From an uncultured delta proteobacterium (GTDB taxonomy: Bacteria; Myxococcota_A; Polyangia; Fen-1088): a DNA stretch of 64,000 bases. Of the stretch, positions 5,017-36,460 are shown in pieces. The DNA lies in contig CAVYGB010000009.1 of NCBI GenBank assembly GCA_963767925.1, positions 1-64,000 on the forward strand, written 5' to 3'. Position numbers and translations under genes: made by a program. The notes below the pieces were generated by a model that was not told the origin of the DNA, searched no databases, and saw only the letters and a list, made by a program, of their open reading frames with translations. The number at the start of each line of letters is the position of its first letter. Positions within the stretch are counted from its first letter, which is position 1.

Positions 5017-5018
5017 CC

Positions 5019-13521: not shown

Positions 13522-13740
13522 GATCCTGTTGTACTGCCGGGTTTTCCCGGCTCGCCTCGCGCACCAGGCTGCCCTGGCAGCGATCCTCTCGAGGAGGGGC
13601 TCGGCACCGACCGAGGGCTGCCGCGAAGACGTGGATGGTCCGCTATCGCGCGCTTGAGCGCGCAAATGGGCACGACGGCGGAAAAAATCCGCAAATCGAC
13701 AGATCCGTGTCAAGCACAATCGCCTCGAACCGCCCGCCTG

Positions 13741-13930
13741 CGGTTCCACGATCTGCGGCACACGACTGCCAGCTTGCTGCTCATGGCGGGCGCGAACCCG
13801 GCCGCCGTCCAGCGGATCCTGCGGCACAGCGACCCGCGCATCACGACCGAGGTCTGCGGGCACCTTCTGCCGGGGTACCTGCGGGCGGAGATCGACCGGC
13901 TCGGCTTCGGCGTCAGCCCGGGCGCAGGAG
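13741..13930 (+). pseudogene. Tyrosine integrase C-terminal remnant (near-identical to 36077-36260)
   Basis: RFHDLRHTTASLLLMAGANPAAVQRILRHSDPRITTEVCGHL. Confidence 0.85.
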
Positions 13931-14045
13931 CGTCTCCTGGCGAAAACCCGGCTCCGGTTCTTCACCCTTCTACAGGGCGCCTCCGGAGCGCTTCCCGAGC
14001 CTCACTCCGGCCCCGCGGGGCCGGGCGATCGGGGCGGTTCGACTG

Positions 14046-14088
14046 TGGGCGCGGCGGGACTCGAACCCATTACCCCCGGCTTCGGAGG
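14046..14088 (-). other. att site: duplicated 3' 43 bp of tRNA-Arg(CCG)
   Basis: TGGGCGCGGCGGGACTCGAACCCATTACCCCCGGCTTCGGAGG matches 36387-36429 with one mismatch. Confidence 0.9.
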
Positions 14089-14264
14089 AGGGTGGACGGG
14101 GTGAGGAGGGTGTGGCAGGCGGTGGTAAGTCTGCGGAACCGTTGGTGGTGGAAGGGGTGAGGGAGTCCAGCGCTGCTGTAGAAAACGCAGGATCTCGTAG
14201 AGGTTTTTCTTCACCCTTTCTACAGGCCGCGGGTCCCGGGGCGGCGGCCCTCCGGATCGGGGGG

Positions 14265-14468
14265 GTGCTCGAGTTCCTCACGGTCCGGGAGGTCGCCAGG
14301 GCCCTGCGCGTCTGCACGGCCACGGTGTACCGCATGTGCGAGCGCGGCGAGCTTGGTCACGTGCGGGCGGCGAACGCCATCCGGGTAAGCGCAGCGTCTC
14401 TGGCCGCGTTCATCCGAACCTGCTCGAACGACCCCTCAACGCGGAGCGCTGCCGGCCCGATTGCTTGA
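14265..14468 (+). CDS. Excisionase-type HTH DNA-binding protein
   Basis: FLTVREVARALRVCTATVYRMCERGELGHVRAANAIRV; adjacent to att; start codon inferred. Confidence 0.8.
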   Translation: MLEFLTVREVARALRVCTATVYRMCERGELGHVRAANAIRVSAASLAAFIRTCSNDPSTRSAAGPIA

Positions 14469-15574: not shown

Positions 15575-16627
15575 TTAGGGCTCGCGTCGGCGGCCCCCAG
15601 GCCCTCCCACCATTTCAGCAGCACCATCGCCCGGGAGATAAGCGGCGGGCTCGGGTTCTGCCTCGGCCGCCGCCGCTGGGGCCGCTTCAGCCTCGGCCGC
15701 CAGCTCCGCCTCGGTCGGAGGCTCCATCTCTTCGGCCGGAAGCGGCTTCAGCAGCTCATCCATCGACAGTTGCTCGAAGGTCTCGGGCGGCGCGACGACT
15801 TTGGTGTAGGCGCGCGCCATGAGCCCCGGTGCGGCCGGGTGGTCGGTCGCGTGAATCATGTAGTACATCACCGCCCCCTGGCAGTTCTCGCGACCCATGA
15901 TGGGCCAGGCCTTCGCGGAGACGTACCCCAGTTCGTTCTTGAACCTATCGGCCAGCAAGTTGGCGCGATCCACACCGTTCATACCCTGCAGCGACTCCCA
16001 ATCCTCCCGACCCCACCAGTCCGCCCCCTTTTGCTTGTTCACGGTCAGCGCGGCCAGCGAGCGGTCGAGCCAGCCGGTGCCCAGGAAGTAGAACAACTCG
16101 ATCTTGTGCTCGCCCACCGGCTTGTACTGCGCCAGCTCCTTTATCGTTTCCCACTTGCACTCGAACGTGCGTTGGTCGAGCAGGCAGAACGTGGCCTTGT
16201 CCTTGATGCTCCGGGTCGCCAGAAGCTTCTTGATCTCCTCGTTGAAGTCCCCGCGCGTGACGAACACGTCGCGCTTCAACGGCTTCTCCATCGGTGGCTG
16301 AGCGTCCCGCAGCCTCTCCAGGTGCATCACCTGCGCCGGATCCACGTCGAACAGGTAGAAGTAGCGGAACCACCGTGGCTTCATCTCCAGCACGAGCTTG
16401 GCGCTCCACATGTCGTGCTTGTCGTCCCGCTGGGGGCCGGCGAAGCCGTCGATGTACGTCCCGTGGTGAGTGACCATCTCGAAGAAGAACAGGTACCGCT
16501 CGATGAGCTTCGCCTTGTGCTCCGTCCAGATTGGTCGCCGGGGTCGCCTCACCGCCGGGTCCACGGGCTTCGGCGGGCCCATGTCGAAGAGGTCCATGGT
16601 GCGCTCGTCCTGCTTGTCCTTCGCCAC
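15575..16627 (-). CDS. tcmP: Three-Cys-motif partner protein TcmP family
   Basis: WTEHKAKLIERYL, YIDGFAGP, GDFNEEI, FCLLDQ, YYMIHATDHP; downstream of DUF5131; start inferred. Confidence 0.85.
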   Translation of the reverse strand: MAKDKQDERTMDLFDMGPPKPVDPAVRRPRRPIWTEHKAKLIERYLFFFEMVTHHGTYIDGFAGPQRDDKHDMWSAKLVLEMKPRWFRYFYLFDVDPAQVMHLERLRDAQPPMEKPLKRDVFVTRGDFNEEIKKLLATRSIKDKATFCLLDQRTFECKWETIKELAQYKPVGEHKIELFYFLGTGWLDRSLAALTVNKQKGADWWGREDWESLQGMNGVDRANLLADRFKNELGYVSAKAWPIMGRENCQGAVMYYMIHATDHPAAPGLMARAYTKVVAPPETFEQLSMDELLKPLPAEEMEPPTEAELAAEAEAAPAAAAEAEPEPAAYLPGDGAAEMVGGPGGRRREP

Positions 16628-16641
16628 GAGCGACGCCCTCC

Positions 16642-17475
16642 CTATCCCGCCGAGCCTTTGCGTTGCAGAGGTTGCACCACCTGGGCGTCGCGGCCTGCCC
16701 ATGCGCCGGCCATCTCCCGCCGCTCGCTTCGCGCCGGAATCGGACGCTTCAGCCTGGGCGGCATGCCGTCGTAGGTGCGGCCGTCCAGCTCGCGCCCGGC
16801 GCGCTTCTTGTGAACGCCGCCCCACTGCTTGAAAAAGAATGGCACCCGGGCAGACTTGCATTGGTCGCGGATGGAGCGCACCCACGCGGGATCCATCTTC
16901 CGAGAGCGCACCCCGCTTTCGCCACCGACGATCACCCAATGGATGCCGTCGAGGGGCAGCTCGCCGAGGTCTTCCAGCAGTGGTTCGACAGACAGGAACC
17001 GGACGCCCGCCGGCGTGTCCTGCAGTTCGCGGATCCTGGGGAGGCCGTGCTTCTTGTCCTCGACGCTCACGCCCCACCAGATATGGGGTGCCTCAGCGCC
17101 GCCGCGCAGCGCGCCCGTGAGCAGCTCGCGCATTCGGTCGGCTCGCTTGGTGAGCACCTGGTAGGTGTGCCAGTTCGCATCCAGCATGATGCCGATCACG
17201 TCGTCCACGTACCACTCGGGAACGGCCTCTTGGAAGAGGTCGGACATTGAGTTCACGAACACGAGGCGTGGCCCGTTCCAGTCGAACACCTCGGTGAGCT
17301 TCCCGGGGATGAGGCGCGGGTCGAAGCCCTGCTCGTAGGGGTGCCCAGGCACGCCGCGGAAGCGCTCGGCGAACGTCTCGGCGTAGCAGTGCTTGCACCC
17401 GGGGCTCACCTTCACGCAGCCGCGCACTGGGTTCCAGGTCGCGTCCGTCCATTCGATTGTGGATCCATCACTCAT
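16642..17475 (-). CDS. DUF5131 (phage Gp37/Gp68 family) radical-SAM-like protein
   Basis: IEWTDATWNPVRGCVKVSPGCKHCYAE, FVNSMSDLF, RFLSVEPLL, WVIVGGESG, FFFKQWGG. Confidence 0.95.
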   Translation of the reverse strand: MSDGSTIEWTDATWNPVRGCVKVSPGCKHCYAETFAERFRGVPGHPYEQGFDPRLIPGKLTEVFDWNGPRLVFVNSMSDLFQEAVPEWYVDDVIGIMLDANWHTYQVLTKRADRMRELLTGALRGGAEAPHIWWGVSVEDKKHGLPRIRELQDTPAGVRFLSVEPLLEDLGELPLDGIHWVIVGGESGVRSRKMDPAWVRSIRDQCKSARVPFFFKQWGGVHKKRAGRELDGRTYDGMPPRLKRPIPARSERREMAGAWAGRDAQVVQPLQRKGSAG

Positions 17476-17836
17476 TGGTACGCCTTCCCCGCCTTTCCCC
17501 GTCTGGTGGGCAGCATTCCGAAGCCTACCCTCGTGCTGACGCACCCCCAACTTTCTGGATCGCGAACGCCCCCCTGACCGTCGGTGCGCCGGTTCCGAGC
17601 GGTCGGCGGTGACTTTCGTCCGCCGCGGAGCCTACTCGCCCCCCCCCGGGCCGTGGTTGAGTTACTTCGTGTGGCCTGCGGGCGGCCCCGACCGGCAGGG
17701 TCGAGTGGACGAGCATCGAACGGTCTGCTTCACCCGGGGAGATCCCTGCGGTTTTTCGAGACCGTCGGGCGCCCGGCAGCTTGACGCAACGGGGCGTGAC
17801 GGACGGTCTGGCGCAGGTCACCTGCCCGCCGTCCTT

Positions 17837-19706
17837 CTAGAACGCCGAACGGTTTGAAAGTGCAGTAATCAAGCGGCCTTACGGAGCGGGACGCAGGCGT
17901 CGAGGCTGCGATCGATCACCTCGAGGTTCTGGACGGCGGCTGCGCGCCTGAGGTCGAAGAGGTTCTTGCGGGTTCCGCAGTATCGGGCGCGATTGCCCTG
18001 CCTACGCCCGAGGTGGGCGAGGCGATGCTCGACGGCGACTCGTTCCCGAAGGCGCTCACGTCCCTGTGACGTGGAGACCAGTTTGCGCAGCCTATGCTGT
18101 AGGCGTTCGTTGTCGGCGATGCTCACGGTTCGGCCGCTGCCGGGGCCAGCGGTGGTGCATTTGGTGCGCTAGGGGCAGCGGACGCAGGCCTCCGGGTTGA
18201 ATTCGACGTGAGCGCCCAGGTCGATGGGCTCGACCTCGCCCGCCGGACAGGTGATGGTCATCGCGCGCAGGTTGATCTTGAAGTCGGTCTTGGTGAACAG
18301 AGAGCCGCTGCGCGGCACCCAGGGTTTACAGATGACCTGGCCGCCGTAGGCCAGGATCTCAGCGACCACCGAGCTGGCGATGTAGCCACGGTCGATGTAC
18401 AGCTCCCAGATGGCGCGGCCCTGACGTTCGATGTCCGCCTTGAGCACAGGGCGGCCTCTTCCTCGGGCCGGTTGGCCGGCGTCATGGCGCAGGCGATGAT
18501 CAGGTCGGTGTCCAGGTCGGTGGCAATGTGCCGCTTGTAGCCATTGAACAGCTTCGTCCTGCTCTTGCGACCATGTCGCATGTCCGGATCCTGGATCGAC
18601 ACCCGTCGTTCTGGTGCGACACCCCTGCGAATGCGAGTCCCGCCGCCACCGCCTTCCGGGTCGGGTTCGAGGTCTTGGGTCCGAATCTGGACGAGCGTGT
18701 CGACGTGCTCCTTGAGGGGAGGCTCGGTCACGGCGTCAGGCAGCCGCTTTCGCAGCCAAGCATCGAGGGAGTCGAGTTGCTCGACGAGGGTGCTGAGGGC
18801 TCCGGCCTTCGCCTCGGGGTTGCTCCATTCGATATCGAGCCCTCGCTTGACGCTACTGCTGAGCAGGAGGGGCATGCCCGCCTCGCGCGCCACCCGTTCG
18901 GCGGACCAACCCAGAAGCTCGGCGGCACACTCGACCACCTTGCGGGCAGCGTGTGCCAGCAGGTTGATGGTGTCCTCGACGCGCCCGGCACCGACGAGCG
19001 GACTGGAGTCGACGGCGACCCGCAGGGTCTTGGGCAGCTTCTTCGAGTCGAATGCGTTCGTGCGGCGGGCTAGCTCCACCGTCCGCTCGAGCAGTCGAAG
19101 GTCCAGATTGGCCCGAATCAACCGCGCGCGGAAGTCGACCAGCGTGCCCTGGGCAAAGGCGGGCTCGTCTTCGCCGAGCCGGTCGAGCACCATCTGCCAC
19201 CGTAGATCCATCACGGTCAGATCGACGGCTTCGGCGTCGGAGATCCCCTGGTAGCTCTGCAGGATAACCACCATCGCCAGCAGAGCGGGTGGTGTCGGAT
19301 CCTTGCCCGCCCCCGTGCTTCGGTACATGGACTCGAGCTCGGCCTGGAAGGCTTCGTCGAACAGCTCGTGGCGGTGGTCGCGAAGGAAGGCGAACAGCTT
19401 CGGCGTCTTGCGCAGGCGCTTGAGCAGGCGTTCTTCTTGCTTGGTGTAGTCGAGCCGCGGCTTCCAACGATCAAGTGGCATGAGGATCCTCCCGCCGGCG
19501 AGGCGCAAACCCGCCGTCGGTGCCCATGAAGGCCACGACTGTATCGATCCCGCCAATTTCCCCCTCTTCCAGACGGGGCCGGCGCAGTCGCCGCTGGGCG
19601 CGGGCCCCGCGGGTTCGTCCTCGTCGCGCCCCCGCCGAAAAGGGGACGCCTCGCCGATCACGCAAATCCGCGATTTTCCTGGGTTTCAAACCGTTCGGCG
19701 TTCTAG
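17837..19706 (-). mobile_element. IS1182-like insertion sequence; transposase 17869-19481 disrupted (frameshift ~18447, stop at 18169)
   Basis: Perfect 23-bp terminal inverted repeat CTAGAACGCCGAACGGTTTGAAA (17837-17859 / 19684-19706); AVDSSPL, DPDMRHGRKS, GYKRH, YIDRGY, RERVAVEH motifs. Confidence 0.85.
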
Positions 19707-20122
19707 GACGCGACACATGAACTGGACCGGGAAGGCCACCCTCTTCGCCTCGATGAAGGCGAATTTCACTCGCTCTCCTTCGCGAAGAAGGTGGCCGCTG
19801 CTTTTAAAATCTCACGCTCCCTCTCCAGCCTTTTGACATCACGCCGCAGGCGGGCGAGTTCCTCCCGCTTCGCTGTTGTCAGGGATCCAGGGGGTCCCTT
19901 CCCAGCATCGATGTCTGCTCTTCGAACCCACTCCCGCAGAGCCGTCTCGGTCAGGTCCAGGTCCTTCGCCACCTGTCCGATGCTGCGGTCGCCGGCCTTG
20001 CACAGCCGGACCGCCTCGACCTTGAAGTCATCATCGAACGCTCGCCGCTTCCGCTTCGCCATGGTTCACTCCTTGCGCATCTTCGCGCGGTTCGGGGTGT
20101 TCACGAAAGCGGGGGAGGATCA
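19707..20122 (-). mobile_element. IS3-family remnant: orfA (19766-20062) plus first codons of orfB, cut by the IS1182-like element
   Basis: RRAFDDDFKVEAVRL...REILKAAATFFAKE, then VKFAFIEA...FPVQFMCRVL; end sequence TGATCCTCCCCCGCTTTCGTGAACA. Confidence 0.85.
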
Positions 20123-20134
20123 GAAATCGTCGCC

Positions 20135-20452
20135 TTACGTCGGCCTCGGGAACGACATATCCCCCGGGGCGGCAACGCGCGGTGAACCGCGTAGTCTTCG
20201 GAGGGCAGCTCTAGAAATGAAGGCGGATGCGCACGCCAATGTCCTCCGGACGTACATCAGCTTCGCGTACATCTTCGACGACAGCGTCGTCTCGATGCGA
20301 ACTCTCCTCCCGTCGTTCGGCCTCGTCGAACCGCCGGTGGAACTCTCCCCCAGCCGCCATGAGACATCTGGATAGAGCAGCGTCAGGAACTGTCGATCAA
20401 ATGCGGTTTTGCCCGCATTATTCGCCCCGGCGATAACGATCGATTCTGGCAT
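20135..20452 (-). pseudogene. Degraded zeta-toxin-like P-loop ATPase
   Basis: IVIAGANNAGKTAF and IETTLS motifs with internal deletions. Confidence 0.5.
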
Positions 20453-20694
20453 TCCGTCACCGCTGGCTCTGGTTCAACCTGAGGCCGCCTCACAACCCAA
20501 CGATCAGGCATTCAGGGACCTGGTTCCGAGCGTAAACGAGGGCCAGGTTCGCCTGCAACGGCCGGTTGCAAGCGTTCATCGTCGCGTGCCGGAATCCCAC
20601 AGATGACCGAGGCAATAGGCGACTCCGCGAACACGCGAGCCGAAGCAGCCGGCCCTGACGCAAGATCCTTCGTCGATGCCGCTGCGGCTCACGC

Positions 20695-21546
20695 ATGAAA
20701 CACCTCGTACATGCGGCAGAGACGTATCGTAAGGAGGCGATGCGCCAGCGTTCTGGTATCATCGATTCGATGCCCAGGTCCATCGCGGATATGCTGGCGG
20801 CACTCCACGCCGTCCATGGCGCCTTTCTGACGAGCGCAGCCAGTGACGTTCGGACGAGCTGCCAGTCGCTCGTGGCTGTCGCCCCGCTTGTTCATCGAAC
20901 TGGCCGGGCGGGAGCAACGGCGGTCACGGAGATCCTAGCGTCCGAAACGCTACTCGCGCAGGACTCGGGGACTGAGTGCGAACGCGGCGCCGGGATGCCG
21001 CGATCGGTCTATTTCTTCCTCGGTTCCGCTTCCTATCCTCTAGGAAACTTTGCTTTCCTGCTCCGGCCCATGATCTTGCAGGGGTTGCAGTCAAATGCGA
21101 CGCCGTTCGACAGCGGCGCATGTGGAAAAGGTTACCTCGAAAGAACGGCAGCTCCCTTCATCGGAGAGAACGAACGATGTCACTGCTTGGATGACCATAC
21201 TCTCGACAGCACGGTCGCTCTTTCGGCCTTCGCACACGACTACATCCTTTGCCATTTTGACAACCCTGTCGACTACGTGAAGCTGCCGCAAATATCCCTG
21301 CCCGACCGGCCGACGTACCACGGCCTTGAGTCAATGAATCGCGATCGGCGAGCATGGACGATAGAGGTGCAATGCCGTGAGCACCTAAGTATGCCTCCCG
21401 ACCCGCACCTAATCGAACGTATCGTTGTGGAGGACCGGGACCTACTAGCGGAGATCCCGCTTCCCTACCGGCGTCTGGCGTTGGTCGCGGCGCCGCTGAC
21501 GATTCCGGAAGCAGTGGCGACATTTTGTATTTCCCAAATGAGGTGA
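20695..21546 (+). CDS. Hypothetical protein, possible ADP-ribosyltransferase fold
   Basis: Intact 283-aa ORF, first of three tightly coupled genes; LVHRT...EIL...L, SVYFFLG, ATPFDSG, WTIEVQ. Confidence 0.75.
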   Translation: MKHLVHAAETYRKEAMRQRSGIIDSMPRSIADMLAALHAVHGAFLTSAASDVRTSCQSLVAVAPLVHRTGRAGATAVTEILASETLLAQDSGTECERGAGMPRSVYFFLGSASYPLGNFAFLLRPMILQGLQSNATPFDSGACGKGYLERTAAPFIGENERCHCLDDHTLDSTVALSAFAHDYILCHFDNPVDYVKLPQISLPDRPTYHGLESMNRDRRAWTIEVQCREHLSMPPDPHLIERIVVEDRDLLAEIPLPYRRLALVAAPLTIPEAVATFCISQMR

Positions 21547-21550
21547 AGCG

Positions 21551-22342
21551 ATGGACCTTGATCTAGCTCCTCTGGTCGTCTCGGGCGGGCTTCGCGGGCT
21601 GAATTCGAAAGCGCCGTTCGCGCGCGCGCCGGTCGTCCTACGTAAGCCAGGGAACCTCGAGTATTTTGTCGTGCGGCGTTTTTCCGTCTCGACAGGAGGA
21701 GTCGACAGCTATGATGTCCTCTCCAGCGAGGACTGGACGCATCTGCTCCGAACCAATGAAGCCTTTGAGGCTCCCATCCAAAGAAGGGCAGAAGCGAACC
21801 AAGCCTTTTGGATCTTTCGACCTGGCTCTAGCGAAAAAGAACTAAAAGCTTGGTTGTCCGATCTTAAGAGGACAGGGGCATTAGTCTCGCAAAATAGAAT
21901 AAAATCGGCAACCGTTGCACTTGTCAACGAAGCCGTTGGCGCCACACGGCGAGACGAATGGTGTGCAGTGCATTTTGGACGCGCCTGGACGCTTGCTTTG
22001 GATGGAAAGCTGAAGGCCGCCGTTACTAGCGCCGAACTAGCATGGCTAATGCAGAGGTATCCAGCAGATGACACAGCCGTGCTCTACTCCTTGCTCCTGG
22101 AGAGGGCTGGCCATCAGCAAGAAGCGCGAGCCATTCTTTCTGTTCAGAGCAACTCCGGGAGTTCGAGCCTGGCCAGCATGGAGGAACTCATGCAAGCAAT
22201 GGGTCGACGGCTAGACCACGAAGCCAATTCACCGCGCGCGAAACCCAGAAGACTTGCTCGAGGACCGCGTCCTCAAGAGCCGGCAATTTTCAAACGGGCG
22301 GTGACTCCCACATTCAGTATTGATCCCTCGCATTCTCCTTAA
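21551..22342 (+). CDS. Hypothetical protein with TPR-like helical C-terminal half
   Basis: Intact 263-aa ORF, GAGGTG RBS, 4-bp gap from upstream gene; AWTLALDGKLKAAV...AVLYSLLLERAGHQQEARAIL. Confidence 0.75.
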   Translation: MDLDLAPLVVSGGLRGLNSKAPFARAPVVLRKPGNLEYFVVRRFSVSTGGVDSYDVLSSEDWTHLLRTNEAFEAPIQRRAEANQAFWIFRPGSSEKELKAWLSDLKRTGALVSQNRIKSATVALVNEAVGATRRDEWCAVHFGRAWTLALDGKLKAAVTSAELAWLMQRYPADDTAVLYSLLLERAGHQQEARAILSVQSNSGSSSLASMEELMQAMGRRLDHEANSPRAKPRRLARGPRPQEPAIFKRAVTPTFSIDPSHSP

Positions 22343-22345
22343 ACC

Positions 22346-24802
22346 ATGGTGTCCCCTCAAAACCTACTCGGGGCCATTGCCGGATTGGCGGTTCCTCTAT
22401 CCAGGTCTGTGGCTGCATTTTTGGAGACCTGCGAAGAGCTCAACCGCGAGGGCATCGAATTTTCGGGAAGACACACGTCGCCTGACGAACTCCTGGGACG
22501 TACGAGGGACTGGGCACTTGGTCGAAACGGGATCCAGGCCGTACTGACAGGCGCCGCGTTCATTAATTGGGAGGACGCGGACCGCAGAGCCGACTTGTGG
22601 GAACGAAGGCTCGCCGCCACTGTGCTACGCACGTGGAACAACATCCGCGCTAACTCTGCCAGAAGGCCCGACGTTCTCCGGTCCACAGTGACCTTGCTGT
22701 CGAATCCGGAGGCGCCTCACACGAAGGAGGTTGTTCGATACGCTCTAGTCCTGGCTCTGCGATCACTTTACGGCGTCGAGAATGAGCCGGCGTCCCTTGC
22801 GCGCCTTTGGGAAGCGTACGAAGGCTTAACAGCGCGTCTTAATGATCAGCAGCGAAGGCGCGTCCTTAAAGACGTGCTCGGAGAAGAGCCATTTCTGATC
22901 GATTTGCTGTGTATGAGTGGCTATTTGTATCGGGCGGCGCTTAGAGGAAACCTGGACGAATACTATCAAGCCTACTATCGGGTTCCATTTGGCGTGGACC
23001 CAAAGCAACGCATTCGCCACTTTGCAGCCCATGGCGATTGGCCAGAGATCCATGGGTCAATTCCTGATTTTTCCACTATTCTTAATCTCTCTTTCAATCA
23101 GCCGCTGGCGCTAGCCGGGTTGGACGAGGTAACGGGTGGGCTAATGCCCACCATGGCGGAATCTCAAGGTCTACGTCCAGGCGGCGTAATTTCTCTCGTA
23201 GCGGGGCCTCCCGGGTCCGGCAAGACCACCCTTGCGATGTCGCTGGGATCGCGGATGGCTGAACTCGGCTCTGAGGTAGTATATCTTACCGCCGAGGAAG
23301 GCTTGCTCAGCCTAAGCGCCAAGAGGATCTCCGTTGTTGACACGAATCGCGTACTCCGATCTTTGTGGCCGGACGCCCAAATTGCCGGCCTTGAGCATCA
23401 GTTTTCGATACGAGACAATGGTTCGTTGGACTCACTTCGTTCCATCGTTAACGCAGTAAAGTCCGATCTCGGAACGCCTCCGCAGGTACCATCGTTTCCC
23501 GGCCAAGTTGTGTTGGCCTTCCCGCACGTTGTGATCGTCGATAGCATCAGTGCTCTAATTGGCGAGGCATCTCCATCGCCAACACGGGCGGTCTCACATG
23601 GCCGACTAGAACTGGCCAGTATGCTAAGGGAGCTCAGGGAGCTTGGGGTTTGCGTCTTTTTGATTGGCGAGAAAAGCCATATACGCAGCGGCGACCTCGC
23701 ATATTTAGTTGATAATGTGTTTGTCCTAGATATTGACCCGGACACGTCAACGAGTCATCCGAAGCGGACTTTTTCTATAGAAAAGACGCGACTCCAGTTG
23801 AGCTTCAGAGGGCGACACGTCTATCATCTGTCCAGATTTGAGGGACCGACCATAAGTCCGTCGCTTCATGCCGTACTGAGACTTGTCGCTCGAGACAACG
23901 GCGAACAATCTCAGAAAGAGGCTCGAGTGGTCATGTGGTCAAGTTTTCCGAAACAGACCGCGTTACCAGGGATCGATGCTACTGGAGGCGTAGGGGAGGC
24001 GATTAGTGTTCGGGCCAACTCTCACCTATTAATTTATGGGTGGGGCACGACCGGAAAGGCGAGATTGGCACTGAGTACGGCATTTGCCACGCAGGTGCCG
24101 ACTGAAGAGCTTGAGAGGCGCTTGGACAACCGGTCTGGCGCAGATCAGACTGAGCTCACCGCTTATGGGCGGATCTGGATGGAACGCGTTCGCGTTCTAG
24201 TTTTCAGCTTCCTATATCCGCAGGACTACTACAGTCGCATCATCGAGGAAATCCTGCGCCAACGTCGCCTCAAGACTGGCTCTAAGGAAATCGACAGTCG
24301 TGCAACAGTCGAAGCGCTCTACCCCGGATACCTAGATCCGGAGACGCTCATTGACCGCTTGCGGCGTCGGCTGGCTACGGCTCGGCAACAGGGTCGACCT
24401 TACACCGCAGTAGTAATGGACGGTGTCCATAACATGCTGCTGCAGTTTCCCTTGCTATCGAGCGAGAATCTTTTGTGGCCTACGATTTTTCGAATCCTTC
24501 GCGCCGAAGGGGTCACAGCAATCTCCACGTTCACGTTCTTCCAAATCTCGGCTTCCGAGAAGATCCCTGGCACATCGATAGCGGCTGTCGAGTCGGCTAT
24601 GGTTCCCAGTGATCTGGAGCGAATGTTTCACCATTTGCTGGTTAGCAATTGCGACTATTCCTTCTTGGTGACCCGCCTGACGGAGGGTCCTCCAAAGAGA
24701 CGACTGCACGTCGCGCGTACGGCGACAATTGATGGGATGGGCAAAGAGAGGATGCAGTTCTACTGGGATAGCGATCGGCTAGAATGCTGGTGCGAAGACT
24801 GA
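22346..24802 (+). CDS. Tandem KaiC/RAD55-like RecA-superfamily ATPase with long N-terminal helical extension
   Basis: GLDEVTGG, Walker A GPPGSGKTT, YLTAEE, Walker B VIVDSIS, YLVDNVFVL, IEKTR; second domain GWGTTGKA and VVMDG. Confidence 0.85.
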   Translation: MVSPQNLLGAIAGLAVPLSRSVAAFLETCEELNREGIEFSGRHTSPDELLGRTRDWALGRNGIQAVLTGAAFINWEDADRRADLWERRLAATVLRTWNNIRANSARRPDVLRSTVTLLSNPEAPHTKEVVRYALVLALRSLYGVENEPASLARLWEAYEGLTARLNDQQRRRVLKDVLGEEPFLIDLLCMSGYLYRAALRGNLDEYYQAYYRVPFGVDPKQRIRHFAAHGDWPEIHGSIPDFSTILNLSFNQPLALAGLDEVTGGLMPTMAESQGLRPGGVISLVAGPPGSGKTTLAMSLGSRMAELGSEVVYLTAEEGLLSLSAKRISVVDTNRVLRSLWPDAQIAGLEHQFSIRDNGSLDSLRSIVNAVKSDLGTPPQVPSFPGQVVLAFPHVVIVDSISALIGEASPSPTRAVSHGRLELASMLRELRELGVCVFLIGEKSHIRSGDLAYLVDNVFVLDIDPDTSTSHPKRTFSIEKTRLQLSFRGRHVYHLSRFEGPTISPSLHAVLRLVARDNGEQSQKEARVVMWSSFPKQTALPGIDATGGVGEAISVRANSHLLIYGWGTTGKARLALSTAFATQVPTEELERRLDNRSGADQTELTAYGRIWMERVRVLVFSFLYPQDYYSRIIEEILRQRRLKTGSKEIDSRATVEALYPGYLDPETLIDRLRRRLATARQQGRPYTAVVMDGVHNMLLQFPLLSSENLLWPTIFRILRAEGVTAISTFTFFQISASEKIPGTSIAAVESAMVPSDLERMFHHLLVSNCDYSFLVTRLTEGPPKRRLHVARTATIDGMGKERMQFYWDSDRLECWCED

Positions 24803-25140
24803 CTTGGGCCCATTGCTGGCGCAGGCAGTAGGTTGACGGACGGAACGGGGTTGGTGAGCCGGTTTATCCTGTAAGAACCTATCCAATGACGCGAGCGAGG
24901 GGTCCGTGCGCTGAAAGGTATCCCGCGGGCCTGACGGGTTTCCGCTTGGTCCCGAGGGATGCGCTTGGGTCAGCCGGGCTGGGGACGACGGCCGCCGCGT
25001 CCGCGATTGCTCGCGTTTCCGATTCCTGCTTCACGGTCCGCGGGACTCTCGTTCACGGCAGGCGGGGAGTCCCGGTCAATCTGACTGCGCTTCAGCGGAT
25101 CGCGCCGCAGTCTCTTGACCAGGCGCTTGTCCCGTCTTCC

Positions 25141-25280
25141 TCCTCGACGAGGCCCACCTCCTTCACCAGGACATGCTCGACCACCTGCACATCCTGCTCA
25201 ACTACCAGTGGGACAGTCGGGCGCTTCTGTCTCTCGTCCTCGTCGGACTGCCCGAGCTGAACGACCGACTCGCGCTTCGG
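25141..25280 (+). pseudogene. ExeA-like transposon-associated AAA ATPase fragment
   Basis: LDEAHLLHQDMLDHLHILLNYQWDSRALLSLVLVGLPEL. Confidence 0.6.
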
Positions 25281-25606
25281 AACCTGTCAACGATTCTGAG
25301 ACAGCCAACTGTTGAATTTGCGCTCGCGCCTCCTCGGTCGCTGGAGCTTCTTCCTTGGGTGGATTGATCCACACGGTTTCTGGTGGCCGACGAGGGTCGG
25401 TGGCCGTCGGACGAAGCGCTCCGGCCTCGCGGCGTAAGCGGCGTCGAGGACGAGGGCGCGCTGGCCAATGCGCTGGTCGACGAGGCCGTGATGGACGTCG
25501 GTGGGCGTGAGGAGGGCCAGGCGGCTGTGATGGTGCTCGGTGTTGTACCAGGCGAAGAACTCCCGCAGGAAAGCGCGCGCGTGCTCCAGGGACGCGAAGC
25601 GCTCGG
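25281..25606 (-). mobile_element. IS3-family 3'-end fragment (inverted paralogue of ~35480-35804)
   Basis: ERFASLEHARAFLREFFAWYNTEHHHSRLALLTP; end GTTGACAGGTT. Confidence 0.8.
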
Positions 25607-25790
25607 GTGGAGAGGGCCGCCGACGTGGACGTCGACGCCCACCTGCGCCGGCTGCACCTGGCAAACGCCCGACGCATCTGGCGCGAGCTGGGGGCCCGTG
25701 CCGAGACCGAGCAGTGGTCCCTCGGCGAATTCCTGGCCATCCTGGTCGCCGAGGAGGTCGCCCATCGTCAGCAGACCCGCCTCGCCCGCC
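25607..25790 (+). pseudogene. istB: IS21-family istB N-terminal fragment
   Basis: LRRLHLANARRIWREL..RAETEQWSLGEFLAILVAEEVAHRQQTRL. Confidence 0.7.
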
Positions 25791-26860
25791 TATGCCGAGC
25801 CCTTCTCCTCGAGCTCCTGGTCAAGGATCTCCACCGTGAAACGCGGCAGGTCGCTCGCGAGTAGATCACGGCGACCTTTCGGTTTGGCCCGCTCGCCGGG
25901 GGACGCAGGTTGCTGGGACTCGGCGCCCGTGTCTTCCTTCGCCTTGGCGACAGCCGCGTCTAGCTCCTTTTGCAGCCGCGCCTCGCTCGCCATCAGATCC
26001 CCGAGCGCCAGCTGCGCCTCGCTCGTGTGGCTGCGCTCAGTCTTGTTCCCGAACAGACGCCGCTTGAGCAGCAGGTTCTCCTGCGCCAGGTTTGCGATCG
26101 TCTCCTCCAGCGACGCCACCTTCGCCCCCAGCGTCACCTTCAACCCGACCAGCTCGCTCTGCAGCGCCGCCAGGAGCGAGCCTGCTTCTTCTGTCGACAG
26201 CGTCTGGCCGTCTGCGGCAGGAGGCGCGCTCTTCACCCAGTCACCTATACGCGAGCAGGATCGTGCCTCGCAAGCATGATTCGCCCCAATCAATGAGTTC
26301 GTCGCCGAGAAGCGCGCGGCGAGACGGTGACACCCTTGTGGATGACCTCGAAGATCGCGTCGCTTACCAGGACATGCTGCTCGCCGGGGCCCGTCGCCCG
26401 CGGCAACTCGAATCGGCCAGCGTCCAGCTTCTTGTGGATCACGATCGTCCCGGAGCCGTCCCAGGTCAGCACCTTCATGCTGTGGCCACGCTTGCTCACG
26501 AAGACAAAGAGGGCCCTCGATCGCGGCTCTGCCCGCATCCGTTCCCGCACCACCGCTCCCAAACGCTCGCTTCCGAGTCGCATGTCCACTGGCTCCAAGG
26601 CCACATAAATGGCAGACCCGCCGCGATCACAGCGCACCTCCGCCAAGCGCGTTCCCGTACCACCGCGCCCAAGCGCTCTTCCGAGTCGCATGTCCACTGG
26701 CTCCAGGGCCACTTAAATTGGCAGCCCCGCCGCGATCACGGGGCACCTCCGCCAAGCGCTTCCACCACCGCCCGTAGCAGGTCCCGATCGAAGTCGCGCG
26801 GCACCTGGATCTCAGCGCCCCCGACCAGCACCGTGATCCTCGCGGAAGACCTCGCTACTC
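25790..26860 (-). mobile_element. IS66-family remnant: tnpA 3' end, accessory tnpB (26290-26712) and truncated tnpC
   Basis: EPVDMRLG, ALFVFVSKRGHSMKVLTWDGSG, KKLDAGRF; LLKRRLFGNKTER; ~110-bp internal tandem duplication at about 26547-26765. Confidence 0.85.
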
Positions 26861-26937: not shown

Positions 26938-27720
26938 CTACGGGCCGTCCGGCCCCGCATCTGGCTTTGGAAGGAGGTCGGGTCGCCAAATTGCAATCCA
27001 GCGGTCCCAGGGAGAAAGGTTCATGAATGGCAGAACCATTGGATCGAACGTGGCCATCTCCAAGGCTCTCCGAATTTCTTCGTCCGGTTTTCCTACGAAC
27101 GATTTTGCGAGGGCACCGGAGCCACGCGCTTCAACGTCGGCCGTTGAGACTTGATCGCCCTGTACTCCAAAAACCGCATCCCCCGCTAAGGGGCTCCACC
27201 CGATGGTGTATGAGATAAATGGTTCCCGCCGTCGCATCCCCGTATTGTTAGGCGGGGCAGGTTCGAAGAGCGGTGCAGTGGTTATCGGCAACAAATACCT
27301 TCCGCCGACCTCGATCCGGGGACAGTCCAGCAGCGCAAATCGAATCTTCTTGCCACCCCTGCGCAGGACCCATCCAGATACGGCGAATTCGAACTCCGCT
27401 GGTGCAGTTTCGGTGGCCTGCGGCGACGTCCAAATAGTCCGCTCGACGCGCACACGGACCTTTCGTCCCAAGTAGCCTTCTTGCCGATCGGCAACCGTCT
27501 GCGGAGGAGGAATCTCTGACTCTTCCAACACCAGCACTTGGGAGAGTTGGAGACTCCACGACACCCAGTCTGTCAGGGTAGTCGACGGATAGAGCCCCTC
27601 TCCTCGACCTATGACGATGTCGGGGTCGGGATCGGGATCGGCGCCAGCTTCGCAGCCTACAGCGGCACCGACCGTCCCCGCAGCGAGGACAAAACGCAAT
27701 AGGCCTCTAGCGCATCGCAT
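26938..27720 (-). CDS. Putative lipoprotein (paralogue of 27955-28701)
   Basis: Lipobox-like AVGC; shares EGY.GR.V.V.V...IW..P, VSGW, PR.EVGGRYL.P, WSPL..DAVF.V.GDQV...DVE.RG..ALA with its neighbour. Confidence 0.8.
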   Translation of the reverse strand: MRCARGLLRFVLAAGTVGAAVGCEAGADPDPDPDIVIGRGEGLYPSTTLTDWVSWSLQLSQVLVLEESEIPPPQTVADRQEGYLGRKVRVRVERTIWTSPQATETAPAEFEFAVSGWVLRRGGKKIRFALLDCPRIEVGGRYLLPITTAPLFEPAPPNNTGMRRREPFISYTIGWSPLAGDAVFGVQGDQVSTADVEARGSGALAKSFVGKPDEEIRRALEMATFDPMVLPFMNLSPWDRWIAIWRPDLLPKPDAGPDGP

Positions 27721-27954
27721 GGTTACCCCGTCTTTTGCTCCTCAGACTCTTCTTCCATCTAGCTCAGCATGTACAACCTATTCGGGGACCGCAAGCGATT
27801 GTCGCCCGTTACTTAACTTCATCCCGCTGGAACTGGGCCTCAACGGCTGGCGGGAGCGAGGAGCGCGCCGTCCGTGCCATGCCGCATCGCCTAAGCGGAT
27901 GCCCCGACGAGGCGTGCGGCATTGTAGACGCTGTTCCAGCGGGACCGGTCTCCT

Positions 27955-28701
27955 TTACTGTCTAGCCGCCTGGACGGCTCTGATTCTCTCGTGTGGCGGA
28001 AGGGCAATATGCTTCTTCACGTCTGGATCTATCGTGGCTTCTTCCAGTCGCAGCTTCAACGCAGCACGGTCCAGCTTCGACAGCTCACGGGCCAAGGCGC
28101 TATTACCCCGAGACTCCACGTCCCGCATTGCAACTTGGTCGCCGGGAACGGCAAAAACTGCGTCGGTCGATAGTGGGCTCCACTGCATTTCGGTGGGAAC
28201 GGGCGTTGGGGATTCTGGACGGGTTGTACGCTCGGGGAGTTGGAAACCGACCACGGGTCGAGGCAACTCGACGACGGGCATAAGATATCGTCCACCAACT
28301 TCCAAACGCGGACTCTGAACCATGGAAAAGGGGCTCAACTGCTCGTTCTTCAATATCCACCCCGATACGACCATACGCGTTTCCGCGGGAATGTTGGGTG
28401 CTCCGGGAGCCGACCAGATGACGTCGTTTACCTGGACGGCGACTTGCCTCCCCACATAGCCTTCGCCACGCGTGAACACCCGCTGGGGCGGAGGTATCTG
28501 GTCCTCGCCCAGGACCGCGACTTCGACGACGTGGTAGGCGTAAGAGACCAGGTCCTTAATCGTTTCGGCAGGAAATAGCCCGTCTCCATGACCGACTCGC
28601 GTTTCTGAGTGCGGCGTGCCGCTCCTGGCGCTGCACCCAGAATTGCCAGAAACGACGAAAGCGGCCATTGCTGTGAAGATTGCAGCTTCCTTAATCATCA
28701 T
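27955..28701 (-). CDS. Putative lipoprotein (paralogue of 26938-27720)
   Basis: GGAGG RBS, hydrophobic N-terminus ending NSGC, shared motifs with its neighbour. Confidence 0.8.
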   Translation of the reverse strand: MMIKEAAIFTAMAAFVVSGNSGCSARSGTPHSETRVGHGDGLFPAETIKDLVSYAYHVVEVAVLGEDQIPPPQRVFTRGEGYVGRQVAVQVNDVIWSAPGAPNIPAETRMVVSGWILKNEQLSPFSMVQSPRLEVGGRYLMPVVELPRPVVGFQLPERTTRPESPTPVPTEMQWSPLSTDAVFAVPGDQVAMRDVESRGNSALARELSKLDRAALKLRLEEATIDPDVKKHIALPPHERIRAVQAARQ

Positions 28702-29127
28702 GTCACCGCCTCCTTCAATACGCAGCGTTGAGCTGTGTAACGTTGTGAGTCCCGAGCGTGGTATCACCGGCCGAGACAGGGGTTTTCATACAATTAAGTG
28801 ACGAGTCGGTCTGTTGCATCCAACCCCAGGCTTGCGCCCCATGGGTTAGGCCGACCGCGTGCCCGGTCTCGTGGCACGTGAGCGGGCGGGTTATGACAAA
28901 TTCGTTGATAAATCCGACATACGTCTGATCGCACCATTGATTAGGGATGTAGTTTTGGGTTCGATCACACCAGGTTATACCCTGAAAGGGTGCTGGGATA
29001 TCCAGCCGGATTTCATAGATGATATCGGTTTCTCCTGGAAATTGTCCGCTGTTATAGACAGGTGATGATGTCTCCGTCAGGTGGAGGTCAGTTGGATTGT
29101 TGAATACGTCGTTTATAGTGCTAAGCA

Positions 29128-35804: not shown

Positions 35805-36260
35805 CCGCCGAGCTGATCCCATTTCTGCGGCAGGTGGTGCTGGAGTCTCATTCGGACCTGGTCTTCCCGAAGCCGGACGGGTCAATGATGAGCGAGGAGG
35901 TCAACCTGGAGGACGTGCTCCGCTGGGCGCTGGCCCGGGCGGGCATCGTGCTCGGGTACGTACACGTCTGCCGGAGGAAGGCCTGCGGCTACGAGGAACA
36001 GACCGGCGACGCGACCGAGCGCCGCTGTCCGACGCACGGGATGCGCCTGTGGCCGAAGGCCCGCCACCGTCCGATCCGGTTCCACGATCTGCGGCACACG
36101 ACTGCCAGCTTGCGGCTCATGGCGGGCGCGAATCCGGCCGCCGTCCAGCGGATCCTGCGGCACAGCGACCCGCGCATCACGACCGAGGTCTGCGGGCACC
36201 TTCTGCCGGGGTACCTGCGGGCGGAGATCGACCGGCTCGCCTTCGGCGTCAGCCCGGGCG
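35805..36260 (+). pseudogene. Island tyrosine integrase, C-terminal part only (truncated by IS3)
   Basis: LVFPKPDG, Cys-rich insert HVCRRKACG...RCPTHG, RFHDLRHTTAS...HSDPRITTEVCGH. Confidence 0.85.
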
Positions 36261-36386
36261 CAGAAGAGCGTCTCCTGGCAAAGAACCTCGCTCCGTTTTC
36301 TTCACCCTTTCTACCGGGCGCCTGCGGAGCGCTTCCCGAGCCTCTCTCCGGCCCCGCGGGGCCGGGTGATCGGGGCGATTCGACTG

Positions 36387-36460
36387 TGGGCGCGGCGGGA
36401 CTCGAACCCACTACCCCCGGCTTCGGAGGCCGGTACTCTATCCAGATGAGCTACGCGCCC
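36387..36460 (-). tRNA. tRNA-Arg(CCG)
   Basis: Reverse complement GGGCGCGTAGCTCATCTGGATAGAGTACCGGCCTCCGAAGCCGGGGGTAGTGGGTTCGAGTCCCGCCGCGCCCA folds as a cloverleaf; anticodon loop CTCCGAA. Confidence 0.95.

Follow-up and report, generated by a model that had tools for sequence, protein, structure and literature searches.

Does a compact set of three genes, kept intact within a decaying island, act as one system, and of which kind? The question is raised by a locus of the window, i.e., the whole stretch of 64,000 nucleotides analysed here, which comes from an uncultured delta proteobacterium. A sequence-only reading had taken this locus for a sensor/ATPase/effector defence system, an interpretation that is examined below from the layout of the genes, the properties of the three proteins and their occurrence elsewhere.

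Layout of the block and of its island

The block is composed of three plus-strand ORFs. ORF1 (20695..21546, 283 aa from the first ATG) is predicted to be an enzyme with an ADP-ribosyltransferase (ART) fold and is a putative effector or toxin. ORF2 (21551..22342, 263 aa) is a predicted non-catalytic adaptor or regulator. ORF3 (22346..24802, 818 aa) is a three-part P-loop ATPase of the KaiC/RadA/RecA type. ORF1 and ORF2 are separated by 4 nt, ORF2 and ORF3 by 3 nt; a Shine-Dalgarno-like GAGGTG precedes the start codon of ORF2, overlapping the 3' end of ORF1. The GC content is 0.592, 0.556 and 0.553 for ORF1, ORF2 and ORF3, respectively (host: ~70%), and GC3 is 0.66, 0.54 and 0.59 vs. 0.97-0.985 in three flanking host genes. 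The low-GC block stops at the stop codon of ORF3 (0.540 at 24600-24799, 0.655 at 24800-24999). These spacers, the GAGGTG overlap and the similar low GC fit acquisition and expression as one unit. Three observations made from the sequence alone are thus recovered: the ORF list gives exactly the co-directional ORFs with 4- and 3-bp gaps, the block is less GC-rich than the host genes (55-59% vs. ~70%), and the frames are fully intact, since 84-100% of ORF3 is covered by its relatives and every family-invariant residue is kept in ORF1, ORF2 and ORF3 (family alignments). As each of the three has relatives, they are real genes and not chance ORFs. A consensus scan upstream of ORF1 did not find a promoter-like site, but such a scan carries no information here (1 site vs. 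1.8 expected). As the island is in decay, expression of the three genes in this host may have been lost.

The block sits inside a tRNA-Arg island bounded by direct repeats of ~350 nt. The left copy (13741..14093; repeat families D1, D2 and D10) marks the island boundary outside the operon and is 93-98% identical to 36077-36434. The right copy (36077..36460, minus strand; repeat alignment 36077-36434) overlaps tRNA-Arg(ccg) (36386-36460), so that the direct repeat takes in the 3' 49 nt of this tRNA gene, in agreement with the tRNA-integrated island initially proposed. The neighbours are fragmentary, in line with the truncation stated earlier: for example, the integrase is found as fragments covering positions 27-130 and 125-162 of a 172-position profile, with a C-terminal fragment within ORF 35795-36565, AcrB as two pieces (359-495 and 3-135 of 1021), DDE as positions 21-65 of 200, rve as positions 2-81 of 102, together with IS66 accessory pieces. 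No secretion genes were seen among the island ORFs scanned.

The markers of a defence hotspot that had been listed are only partly found. DUF5131 and TcmP are present as a pair ~3 kb upstream of the block, and this pair matches PDC-M41, one of the candidate systems in PADLOC (A: 9.5e-10; B: 3.1e-97); for the «TA pairs», just one PIN-domain ORF was seen (4161-4733, domain scan). The repeat-bounded tRNA-Arg island and the PDC-M41-like pair upstream were counted as context in favour of the explanation preferred below.

Properties of the three proteins

For ORF1, 44 relatives were found (lowest E 1.5e-55, best identity 43%), none with a name or a Pfam domain. Its start is ambiguous, i.e., ATG 20695 (283 aa), 20740 (268 aa) or 20770 (258 aa), and 27 of the 44 relatives start opposite its residues 26-35. 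ORF1 has no match in Pfam, PADLOC, NCBIfam or PHROG, and none of the 45 members of its family matches the ART Pfam families at E<=10. The comparison of its AF2 model (pLDDT 94.3) with the PDB (Foldseek) gives ART-fold enzymes for all the top 15 matches: 7 DarT chains, 4 OspC3, 2 CopC and 2 SopF, with probabilities of 0.51-1.00 (0.82 or higher for 13 of them). Tpt1 and PARPs come next. The best E-value is that of OspC3 (1.3e-3, probability 0.96); no PDB match reaches E<=1e-3, and TMq of 0.27-0.41 and TMt of 0.13-0.49 indicate that these matches are distant. The viral models of BFVD give 8 matches at E<=1e-3, among them granulovirus ORF32 and, lower down, ORF30 and iridovirus 422L (probability of the BFVD matches: 0.94-1.00). 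PMC9503650 describes the baculo-, asco- and iridovirus family ORF28 as related to DarT-like ARTs.

The conserved residues of the ORF1 family are H67-R68-T69, Y106, D139, H209 and E224, the latter being invariant. H67-R68-T69, Y106 and E224 are each on a predicted strand and in the order of the H-Y-E triad; this triad and the H-x-[S/T] rule of ARTs are given in PMC8120803 and PMC11543638. Their order and secondary structure, rather than a superposition, suggest that H67, Y106 and E224 are equivalent to the triad. In addition, the model has a helical N-terminal extension of ~60 aa, and a second helical segment is inserted at ~aa 150-200. According to this model, ORF1 has an ADP-ribosyltransferase fold, and it is likely to be an ADP-ribosylating enzyme. 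The former label «ART-like» is supported at the level of the fold (15/15 top PDB matches, H-x-T/Y/E kept) but not at that of the sequence family.

ORF2 is more divergent. A word-based sequence search found no relatives, whereas an exhaustive HMMER search found ~64 (best E 6e-26), the best one being 35% identical. Three parts are seen in its AF2 model (pLDDT 91.9): aa 1-126 form a beta-rich N-domain, aa 127-226 form a TPR-like helical repeat, and the remaining tail (aa 227-263) is disordered. The repeat matches the TPR folds of Sec72 and GmaR (probability 1.00), the N-domain has weak fold matches only, and neither a macrodomain nor a NADAR fold is found among the fold matches. «TPR-like» therefore describes the C-terminal half (127-226) and not the N-terminal beta-domain. 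The family keeps structural residues only (G12, F23, W87, V125 and Ala); no conserved catalytic or polar residues are found in the alignment. A C-terminal -AA ends 24 of the 66 ORF2-family proteins listed, vs. 4/45 and 0/21 in the two other families, which hints at a regulated, perhaps protease-targeted, tail. It must be noted that the ORF2 of the window ends in -SP, not -AA.

ORF3 has 20 relatives (35-51% identity, E down to 2.8e-260), 3 of which are named «KaiC/GvpD/RAD55 family RecA-like ATPase» in their source. Its Pfam matches are KaiC (PF06745, 9.3e-13, 48.5 bits vs. a cut-off of 26.6) and AAA_25 (1.2e-8); its PDB profile matches are RadA, KaiC, RAD51 paralogues and ArsA. The N-terminal domain (aa 1-250, 22346..23095, plus strand) is conserved in the family, with R88, P108, Y142, D186, R196, G216 and R224 invariant; it has no Pfam match at E<=10, and Atlas scores of 0.77-0.78 carry no information on its fold. 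Both KaiC Pfam stretches (1e-13) are localized in the first RecA/KaiC domain (aa 251-515, 23096..23890, plus strand). Walker A GPPGSGKT (K293), E317-E318 and the Walker-B-like D399 are invariant there in 17 aligned sequences, and K480-T481-R482 and R488-G489-H491 are also present. The intact Walker A/B motifs and Glu-Glu pair suggest that this domain is a predicted active ATPase.

The second RecA-like domain (aa 545-818, 23978..24799, plus strand) is degenerate, according to alignment invariants and hhalign. Its P-loop is a variant, GxGxxGKA (K571, A572); D692-G693-x-H695-N696 is present, and the Glu-Glu pair of the first domain has no counterpart in the alignment. It is barely detectable by itself (Pfam AAA_25 only at E=0.43, no PDB sequence match). 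Its hhalign alignment with the first domain extends over 142 columns (E=0.017) and places Walker A and B in register, vs. 14 columns and E=0.3 for the control alignment of the N-domain with the second domain. The «tandem KaiC-like» description is consequently firm for the first domain and weak for the second. ORF3 is far below the cut-offs of the clock KaiC, RadA and RadB equivalogs (KaiC clock: 25.1 vs. 408 bits). Its matches to the STAND family are limited to the P-loop and sub-threshold (nSTAND3: 19.3 bits vs. 27.2).

Occurrence elsewhere and rival explanations

The three families are rare and mostly come from metagenomes. The single genome scan gave 14 loci with P-loop-level matches only (20-42% identity), i.e., no orthologues, and none of the 14 has an ORF1- or ORF2-family ORF. 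Neither ORF1 nor ORF3 had a tblastn match in 72,556 plasmids and 50,697 phages, and 0/134 retrieved proteins match two of the three family profiles, i.e., there are no fusions among them. The contigs of the 20 ORF3 and 44 ORF1 relatives, compared by size, do not coincide except for the window's own; as only the longest contig is given for a multi-contig cluster, this comparison is a crude proxy, and firm conclusions are limited to the four ORF3 relatives located on contigs of 15.6-66.6 kb. There is thus no sign of co-occurrence of the three families in the genome scan, the fusion check or the shared-contig comparison.

The block looks like an undescribed toxin-based conflict module. The explanation tentatively preferred, with a chance somewhat short of even, is a horizontally acquired, ATPase-controlled ART toxin module of the defence or toxin-antitoxin type. 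ORF1 would be a divergent H-Y-E (DarT/diphtheria-toxin-like) ADP-ribosyltransferase using NAD+ on a macromolecule; judging by the closest folds, this target may be nucleic acid or an essential protein. ORF2 would be a non-enzymatic adaptor that keeps ORF1 inactive or ties it to the ATPase. ORF3 would be an oligomeric KaiC/RadA-type ATPase whose first domain hydrolyses ATP, the degenerate second domain and the N-domain serving as scaffold and sensor; as a switch, it would release or activate the effector on a trigger, e.g., phage infection or loss of the element. We infer in this way the joint action of the three proteins, the toxicity of ORF1, the binding partners, the trigger and the anti-phage role, and the sensor/ATPase/effector defence interpretation has the same status.

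It is rather unlikely that ORF1 and ORF2 are a two-gene toxin-antitoxin or toxin-immunity pair (an ART toxin, then a binding-type neutraliser, in the darT-darG order and without an ADP-ribose hydrolase) with the ATPase as an independent passenger. The toxin-like gene does come first and is followed by a small, fast-evolving partner (best-relative identity of 35% for ORF2, 43% for ORF1 and 51% for ORF3) whose family has a disordered tail and -AA ends; moreover, the ORF1 and ORF3 families are not connected by any fusion or common contig in the proteins and contigs compared. However, the ORF2-ORF3 gap is only 3 nt, the composition is the same in the three genes, ORF2 has no macrodomain or NADAR fold, and the co-occurrence of ORF1 and ORF2 elsewhere is just as unsupported as that of the trio. 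A mobile-element DNA-transaction module is improbable. A RadA/Sak4-like ATPase of the recombination or helicase type would then act in replication, recombination or maintenance of the island; in the same process, and not as a toxin, ORF1 would modify nucleic acid or the ends of DNA by a chemistry like that of Tpt1 and DarT. The location within a mobile island, the nucleic-acid enzymes DarT and Tpt1 among the fold neighbours of ORF1, and the matches of ORF3 to RadA/Sms, RadB, RecA and RAD51 paralogues and to the PHROG Sak4-like annealing protein, UvsX-like recombinase and DnaB-like helicase are in its favour. But these ORF3 matches are weak (E 1e-7 to 1e-3), limited to the P-loop region and far under the family cut-offs, the phage and plasmid records gave no match, and domain searches detected no DNA-binding domain in the three proteins.

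KaiC-family ATPases have signalling roles in many prokaryotes, protein substrates are commonly presented by TPR adaptors, and OspC3, CopC and SopF, fold neighbours of ORF1, modify proteins; a cellular regulatory module, i.e., a KaiC-like signalling ATPase with reversible DraT-like regulatory ADP-ribosylation of a host protein and ORF2 as substrate adaptor, could be proposed on this basis. It is very improbable given the foreign composition, the decaying island, the rarity of the families, the low score against the KaiC clock equivalog and the operon having no hydrolase gene to reverse the modification. Equally improbable is the lack of any joint function, i.e., three unrelated cargo genes juxtaposed by the history of the island and possibly unexpressed. 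The heavily degraded surroundings, the promoter scan and the lack of co-occurrence elsewhere are compatible with it, whereas three uninterrupted frames that keep the full length of their families and all invariant residues, a common atypical composition, and short spacers with an overlapping Shine-Dalgarno-like site, typical of co-translated operons, argue against it.

Comparison with known systems

PADLOC agrees that no named system is recognised: ORF1, ORF2 and their families have no match. The ATPase-controlled toxin module preferred here resembles DarTG by several properties: 7 DarT chains are among the closest folds of ORF1 (probability 0.82-1.00, TMt 0.42-0.49), the H...Y...E pattern of the family is that of the class to which PMC11543638 assigns DarT2, and a toxin-like gene comes first with a small partner directly after it, here in a mobile island. 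It differs from DarTG by the lack of sequence-level membership of ORF1, by the N-terminal region and insertion of ORF1, by a beta-domain + TPR partner where DarG is a macrodomain or NADAR hydrolase, and by the large ATPase gene attached. OspC3 gives the best E-value for ORF1, and CopC and SopF are within the top 15, but TM-scores are low; moreover, these effectors are secreted by host-associated bacteria and contain parts that bind a host cofactor, whereas ORF1 sits in an operon with an ATPase.

ORF3 belongs with the KaiC/RadA/RecA superfamily by its first domain, i.e., the PF06745 score, Walker A, Glu-Glu, Walker B and K-x-R...H, and departs from it by the unique conserved 250-aa N-domain and the degenerate second domain (GKA P-loop, no Glu-Glu). 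MADS was rejected for ORF3, as the mad8 match is weak and at the P-loop level only (1.8e-9, residues 280-441). According to PMC13662399, the MADS operon comprises eight genes and includes modules for a methyltransferase, a kinase and a nuclease, all absent from the three-gene block. A close general architecture, compared as a class only, is that of conflict systems with an NTPase, a TPR or adaptor protein and an effector, the class surveyed in PMC7159879: like these systems, the block is located in a mobile island and brings together an NTPase, an adaptor with helical repeats and an effector enzyme. ORF3 is however of the RecA/KaiC type and not a STAND or AAA+ NTPase, and the three parts are here separate small genes.

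A compact block of atypical composition inside a tRNA-integrated island

The three open reading frames lie at 20695-21546 (ORF1, 283 aa), 21551-22342 (ORF2, 263 aa) and 22346-24802 (ORF3, 818 aa), all on the + strand and separated by 4 nt and 3 nt in the ORF listing, i.e., positions, sizes and spacers are exactly those of the earlier sequence-only reading of the window. As judged by sequence comparison they are real genes, each with relatives. Their GC content is 0.592, 0.556 and 0.553 for ORF1, ORF2 and ORF3, respectively. The GC3 values (0.66, 0.54 and 0.59) are far below the 0.97-0.985 of three host genes, thus the lower GC content noticed at first reading is real. The edge of the low-GC block is the stop codon of ORF3. 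A Shine-Dalgarno-like GAGGTG overlaps the 3' end of ORF1. No convincing terminal repeats flank the block, no RNA family was found in 19000-26500 beyond a chance-level miRNA match (E 0.85), and the promoter/terminator scan gave only sites at or below the shuffled expectation.

The window contains two tRNAs, of which tRNA-Arg(ccg) is located at 36386-36460 on the minus strand. A direct repeat of ~350 nt (13741-14093 and 36077-36434, 93-98% identical, ~22.3 kb apart) takes in the last 49 nt (3' end) of tRNA-Arg(ccg), along with a C-terminal integrase fragment. Since this repeat, with the tRNA-Arg 3' end, stands around the block, the operon is inside a repeat-bounded, tRNA-integrated island. The repeat pair looks like att-type island boundaries. 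A further integrase fragment is found at 2110-3318; together with the repeats, it may mean that two elements have accumulated in tandem at the same tRNA. Most neighbours of the block had been described as truncated or IS-disrupted, and partial profile coverage indeed identifies most of them as fragments: integrases, AcrB, IS3/IS66/IS4-type transposases and rve integrases.

Predicted folds and conserved residues of the three proteins

ORF1 has 44 relatives (best E 1.5e-55). Three ATG codons are candidate starts, i.e., 20695, 20740 and 20770. AAGGAGG ends 2 nt before 20740, 27 of the 44 relatives have their first residue aligned with positions 26-35 of the 283-aa form, and the database gene call is 268 aa long. 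The start is thus ambiguous; the catalytic core is not touched by this choice. ORF1 matches no family of Pfam (0 families at E≤1), PADLOC, NCBIfam or PHROG. Among the 45 aligned members of its family, none matches an ART (ADP-ribosyltransferase) or DarT family of Pfam at E≤10 and none matches a PADLOC model. The PDB sequence search with the ORF1 profile gave nothing meaningful (best E 0.56, dynein light chain), and the nearest clusters in the ESM Atlas are unnamed hypothetical proteins.

The AlphaFold2 model of ORF1 computed with the family alignment has a mean pLDDT of 94.3 and a pTM of 0.88. The ART fold is defined by an NAD+-binding core, a split beta-sheet with about six strands. All the top 15 Foldseek matches in the PDB are ART-fold proteins (7 DarT chains, 4 OspC3, 2 CopC and 2 SopF), with probabilities of 0.51-1.00 (at least 0.82 in 13 of 15). 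It must be noted that these matches are distant: E ranges from 1.3e-3 to 3.2e-2 (none at E≤1e-3), TMq from 0.27 to 0.41 and TMt from 0.13 to 0.49. Next come weaker matches to Tpt1 and PARP catalytic domains. The viral library BFVD gave 8 matches at E≤1e-3, and the probability is at least 0.96 in 19 of the 21 top matches, including granulovirus ORF32 and ORF30, iridovirus 422L, giant-virus proteins and phage proteins. According to PMC9503650, baculo-, asco- and iridoviruses have an ORF28 family that is related to DarT-like DNA-modifying ARTs. The "ART-like" label of the sequence-only reading is thus upheld at the fold level, the similarity being distant.

The ORF1 family is characterized by the motifs P-L-V-H67-R68-T69-G, Y106-F-F-L-G, T-P-F-D139-S-G141, Y-H209-G-L and D-R-R-A-W221-T-I-E224-V. 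Conservation reaches at least 90% at H67-R68-T69 and Y106 and is complete at E224. ART classes are distinguished by the triad H-Y-E (ARTD) or R-S-E (ARTC), the His being typically in H-x-[S/T], according to PMC8120803 and PMC11543638. H67-R68-T69, Y106 and E224 are located on predicted strands (65-69, 103-109 and 224-227), in the same order as H-Y-E, and we infer from the model that H67, Y106 and E224 are equivalent to this triad. ORF1 is very probably an H-Y-E-type enzyme with the ART fold, and it would be the first example of a family that has no name.

No relatives of ORF2 were found by the word-based search. Exhaustive searching with HMMER brought up 65 proteins in addition to the query (best relative E 6e-26), and 23 entries, query included, have E≤1e-10. 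One of the 65, P0130, is missed by the family profile and is thus probably spurious, which leaves ~64 relatives. Conservation is restricted to G12, F23, W87, V125 and several Ala; the family alignment contains no polar catalytic candidates. The model (pLDDT 91.9) is composed of a beta-rich part (1-126), five helices (127-226) and a low-confidence tail. With Foldseek, the helical part matches the TPR domains of Sec72 and GmaR (probability 1.00) and FKBP51 (0.54-0.66), while the N-domain gives only weak leads, i.e., the FMRP tandem Tudor (0.87) and PARP1 chains with the WGR domain (0.25-0.51). The earlier "TPR-like" description thus holds for the helical half (127-226) but not for the beta-rich N-terminal half. 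At E≤1, ORF2 matches no Pfam family, TPR included. In its relative P0114, TPR hits remain below threshold in the homologous region (TPR_2, 26.4 bits vs. 27). No PADLOC model matches ORF2 or any of 55 members of its family.

Several relatives carry the ORF2-like module joined to other regions: a long TPR-bearing C-terminal region in P0113 (1180 aa), an ammonium-transporter-like region in P0114 (possibly a gene-call chimera), a Cys-rich N-terminal extension in P0118 and an extra C-terminal domain in P0106. These junctions with TPRs or other N- or C-terminal regions fit an adaptor module. The C-terminus is -AA in 24 of 66 ORF2-family proteins, and in 4 of 45 and 0 of 21 proteins of the ORF1 and ORF3 families, respectively. 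These -AA ends of the ORF2 family stand after a disordered tail; ORF2 of the window ends with -SP. C-terminal Ala-Ala resembles protease-targeting tags, thus the -AA ends are a lead for regulated turnover and may be a degradation or recognition tag.

ORF3 has 20 relatives (35-51% identity, best E 2.8e-260). It matches Pfam KaiC (PF06745) with 48.5 bits vs. a cut-off of 26.6 (51.7 bits for residues 251-515 alone), and also Pfam AAA_25. None of the NCBIfam matches (RadB, KaiC, RadA/Sms, RecA) comes near its cut-off: with 25.1 bits of the 408 required by the KaiC equivalog NF006799, ORF3 is not the clock protein. PDB profile matches around the P-loop are ArsA, RadA, KaiC, RuvBL1 and RAD51 paralogues (E 1e-7 to 1e-2).

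An alignment of 17 sequences was used to divide ORF3 into three parts and to define invariant residues. The N-domain (~250 aa) has the invariant residues R88, P108, Y142, D186, R196, G216 and R224. It has no Pfam match, and its ESM Atlas scores (0.77-0.78) are under the chance level, with no informative neighbour. The first RecA/KaiC domain contains GPPGSGKT (G287-T294, including K293), E317-E318, D399, K480-T481-R482 and R488-G489-H491; the Walker A motif GPPGSGKT, the catalytic Glu pair E317-E318 and the Walker B Asp D399 are invariant across the 17 sequences. In KaiC proper, the two homologous halves both bind nucleotides. The C-terminal domain of ORF3 contains GxGxxGKA (K571, A572) and D692-G-x-H-N; the Ser/Thr of Walker A is missing (GKA, not GK[ST]), as is the Glu-Glu pair. 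Its Walker A and B are in register with those of the first domain in a weak hhalign match (E=0.017 over 142 columns), compared with E=0.3 over 14 columns for the N-domain vs. C-domain control. The PDB sequence search with the C-terminal domain gave nothing meaningful (E 1.1). From its motifs, this domain is probably a degenerate, non-hydrolytic RecA-like domain. The "tandem KaiC-like" architecture proposed for ORF3 is thus confirmed by PF06745 for the first domain, in which both Pfam KaiC stretches fall, but it is only plausible for the second one.

Possible joint function and comparison with known systems

Joint function is suggested by the spacers of 3-4 nt, the GAGGTG overlap, the common atypical composition and the intactness of the genes amid decay. 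The defining claim, i.e., that they form one functional system with a defence role, is a hypothesis. The reading preferred here, with not quite an even chance of being right, is an ATPase-controlled toxin module. ORF1 would ADP-ribosylate a nucleic acid or an essential protein and ORF2 would restrain or position ORF1. In ORF3, probably oligomeric, ATP binding or hydrolysis by the first domain would be coupled to sensing via the N-domain and the pseudo-ATPase domain. The outcome would be growth arrest, either for phage defence or for element addiction. A more specific version appears unlikely: in a new tripartite system, a ring ATPase of the KaiC/RadA-like kind would govern a labile inhibitor with TPRs, which itself would restrain an unrecognised DarT-like ART family. 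The -AA ends, present in many relatives of this inhibitor, are reminiscent of protease-targeting tags. Upon infection or element loss, the ATPase would remove or remodel the inhibitor, and the ART would then modify nucleic acid and halt growth. If true, anti-phage or addiction systems would gain their first RecA/KaiC-type switch, as well as a new family of ART toxins.

Other readings divide the block or give it another role. ORF1 and ORF2 could be a toxin-antitoxin pair beside an unrelated ATPase, which is rather improbable. The data on association of the families are as follows. Judged by a crude contig-size proxy, no contig is common to ORF1 and ORF3 relatives except the 320,213-nt contig of the window itself. 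Since a multi-contig cluster is represented by its longest contig alone, this proxy can be relied on just for the four ORF3 relatives whose contigs measure 15.6-66.6 kb. It provides no positive evidence of pairing and mildly suggests that some ORF3-family ATPases lack an ORF1-family partner, which would be equally expected if effectors swap between loci. The genome scan with the ATPase alignment gave unrelated KaiC/RadA-like genes among the 14 loci listed, its matches being dominated by the generic GPPGSGKT pattern, and none of these 14 loci has an ORF1- or ORF2-family gene. Family profiles revealed no fusion linking the ORF1, ORF2 and ORF3 families among 134 proteins. An ATPase fusion was considered for the long ORF2 relatives P0113 and P0114 and rejected, the additional regions being TPR or transporter regions.

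A mobile-element DNA-transaction module would be quite unlikely; tblastn of ORF1 and ORF3 against plasmid and phage collections gave no match. It must be noted that the word-based search missed all the ORF2 relatives listed by HMMER, so word-based negatives are weak. Very little probability is given to a cellular regulatory ADP-ribosylation module, and just as little to three genes devoid of joint function in spite of their spacing and common composition.

Among known systems, DarTG is the closest to the block in predicted effector chemistry and in gene order. However, (i) ORF1 has no sequence match to the DarT family, Pfam DUF4433 (0/45 members at Pfam E≤10); (ii) the DarTG antitoxin is an ADP-ribose hydrolase, whereas neither a macrodomain nor NADAR is among the fold matches listed for ORF2. 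DarTG membership was thus rejected on both features tested, i.e., DarT-family sequence and hydrolase antitoxin. The block is broadly similar to conflict systems made of an NTPase, an adaptor and an effector, except that the NTPase is here of the RecA/KaiC type. MADS (mad1-mad8) is presented in PMC13662399 as an eight-gene methylation-based system with methyltransferase, kinase and ATPase-nuclease modules. The PADLOC mad8 model matches ORF3 at the P-loop level (35.6 bits, E 1.8e-9, residues 280-441) and mad1 gives 20 bits on an HTH gene at 13635-14468; ORF1 and ORF2 match no mad model. MADS membership was rejected, the mad8 match being at the P-loop level and the other MADS parts being absent here.

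The sequence-only reading had recognised no named system, and no model of PADLOC-DB v2.0.0 covers ORF1, ORF2 or their families. In the available text of the open literature on KaiC-type ATPases with ART/DarT or phage defence, no such architecture was found; this result is provisional, subscription journals and bioRxiv supplements being outside its scope. The architecture is thus considered, provisionally, as unusual and not in print. If the three genes act together, it would be new among bacterial conflict systems: ART toxins of a family that lacks a Pfam model and is far from DarT would be under a RecA/KaiC-type ATPase, whereas known defence systems commonly use STAND, AAA+ or ABC ATPases. 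There is interest in ART toxins that target nucleic acids, both as tools and as models for the ADP-ribosylation of DNA/RNA. Whatever the status of the system, ORF1 and ORF2 define two uncharacterised families (44 and ~64 relatives), now with confident folds.

Other cargo and features of the window

A pair of genes encoding TcmP and DUF5131, identified by TIGR04474 and DUF5131 profile matches, is located at 15575-17550 on the minus strand, ~3 kb upstream of the block. TcmP scores 125.3 bits with TIGR04474 (cut-off 53) and the adjacent gene matches DUF5131 with E 9.2e-95. Together they correspond to PDC-M41, a candidate system of PADLOC (A 9.5e-10, B 3.1e-97). Since the match to TcmP begins at residue 184 of a 500-aa ORF, the overlap with DUF5131 is probably a longest-ORF artefact.

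A second low-GC block (27000-29200, GC 0.57-0.60) contains four overlapping candidate ORFs: 26938-27720 (-), 27611-28318 (+), 27955-28767 (-) and 28715-29128 (-). None of the four has a Pfam or PADLOC match, and this block looks like another piece of foreign cargo. Also within the island, three imperfect copies of a 43-nt unit with the repeated word TTTCGCCAGGGTCATGGG are found at 33841-33952, in an intergenic stretch.

A large Lhr-type helicase (NCBIfam PRK09751) at 41309-46280 (+) is divided over two overlapping ORFs in different frames. The best stretch of ORF 41309-43252 corresponds to positions 14-230 of the 1538 profile positions, and ORF 42729-46280 to positions 427-1444. The split is a frameshift, due either to a pseudogene or to an error of sequencing. 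In ORF 52260-53903 (-, 547 aa), residues 1-48 match the N-terminus of TIGR04095, a restriction enzyme of the DNA phosphorothioation system (E 1.2e-17, 64 bits vs. a cut-off of 600). Finally, a short tandem run of the GGGAAC hexamer is found at 7233-7276, near the 3' end of ORF 4734-7343, which encodes a GntR-aminotransferase fusion.
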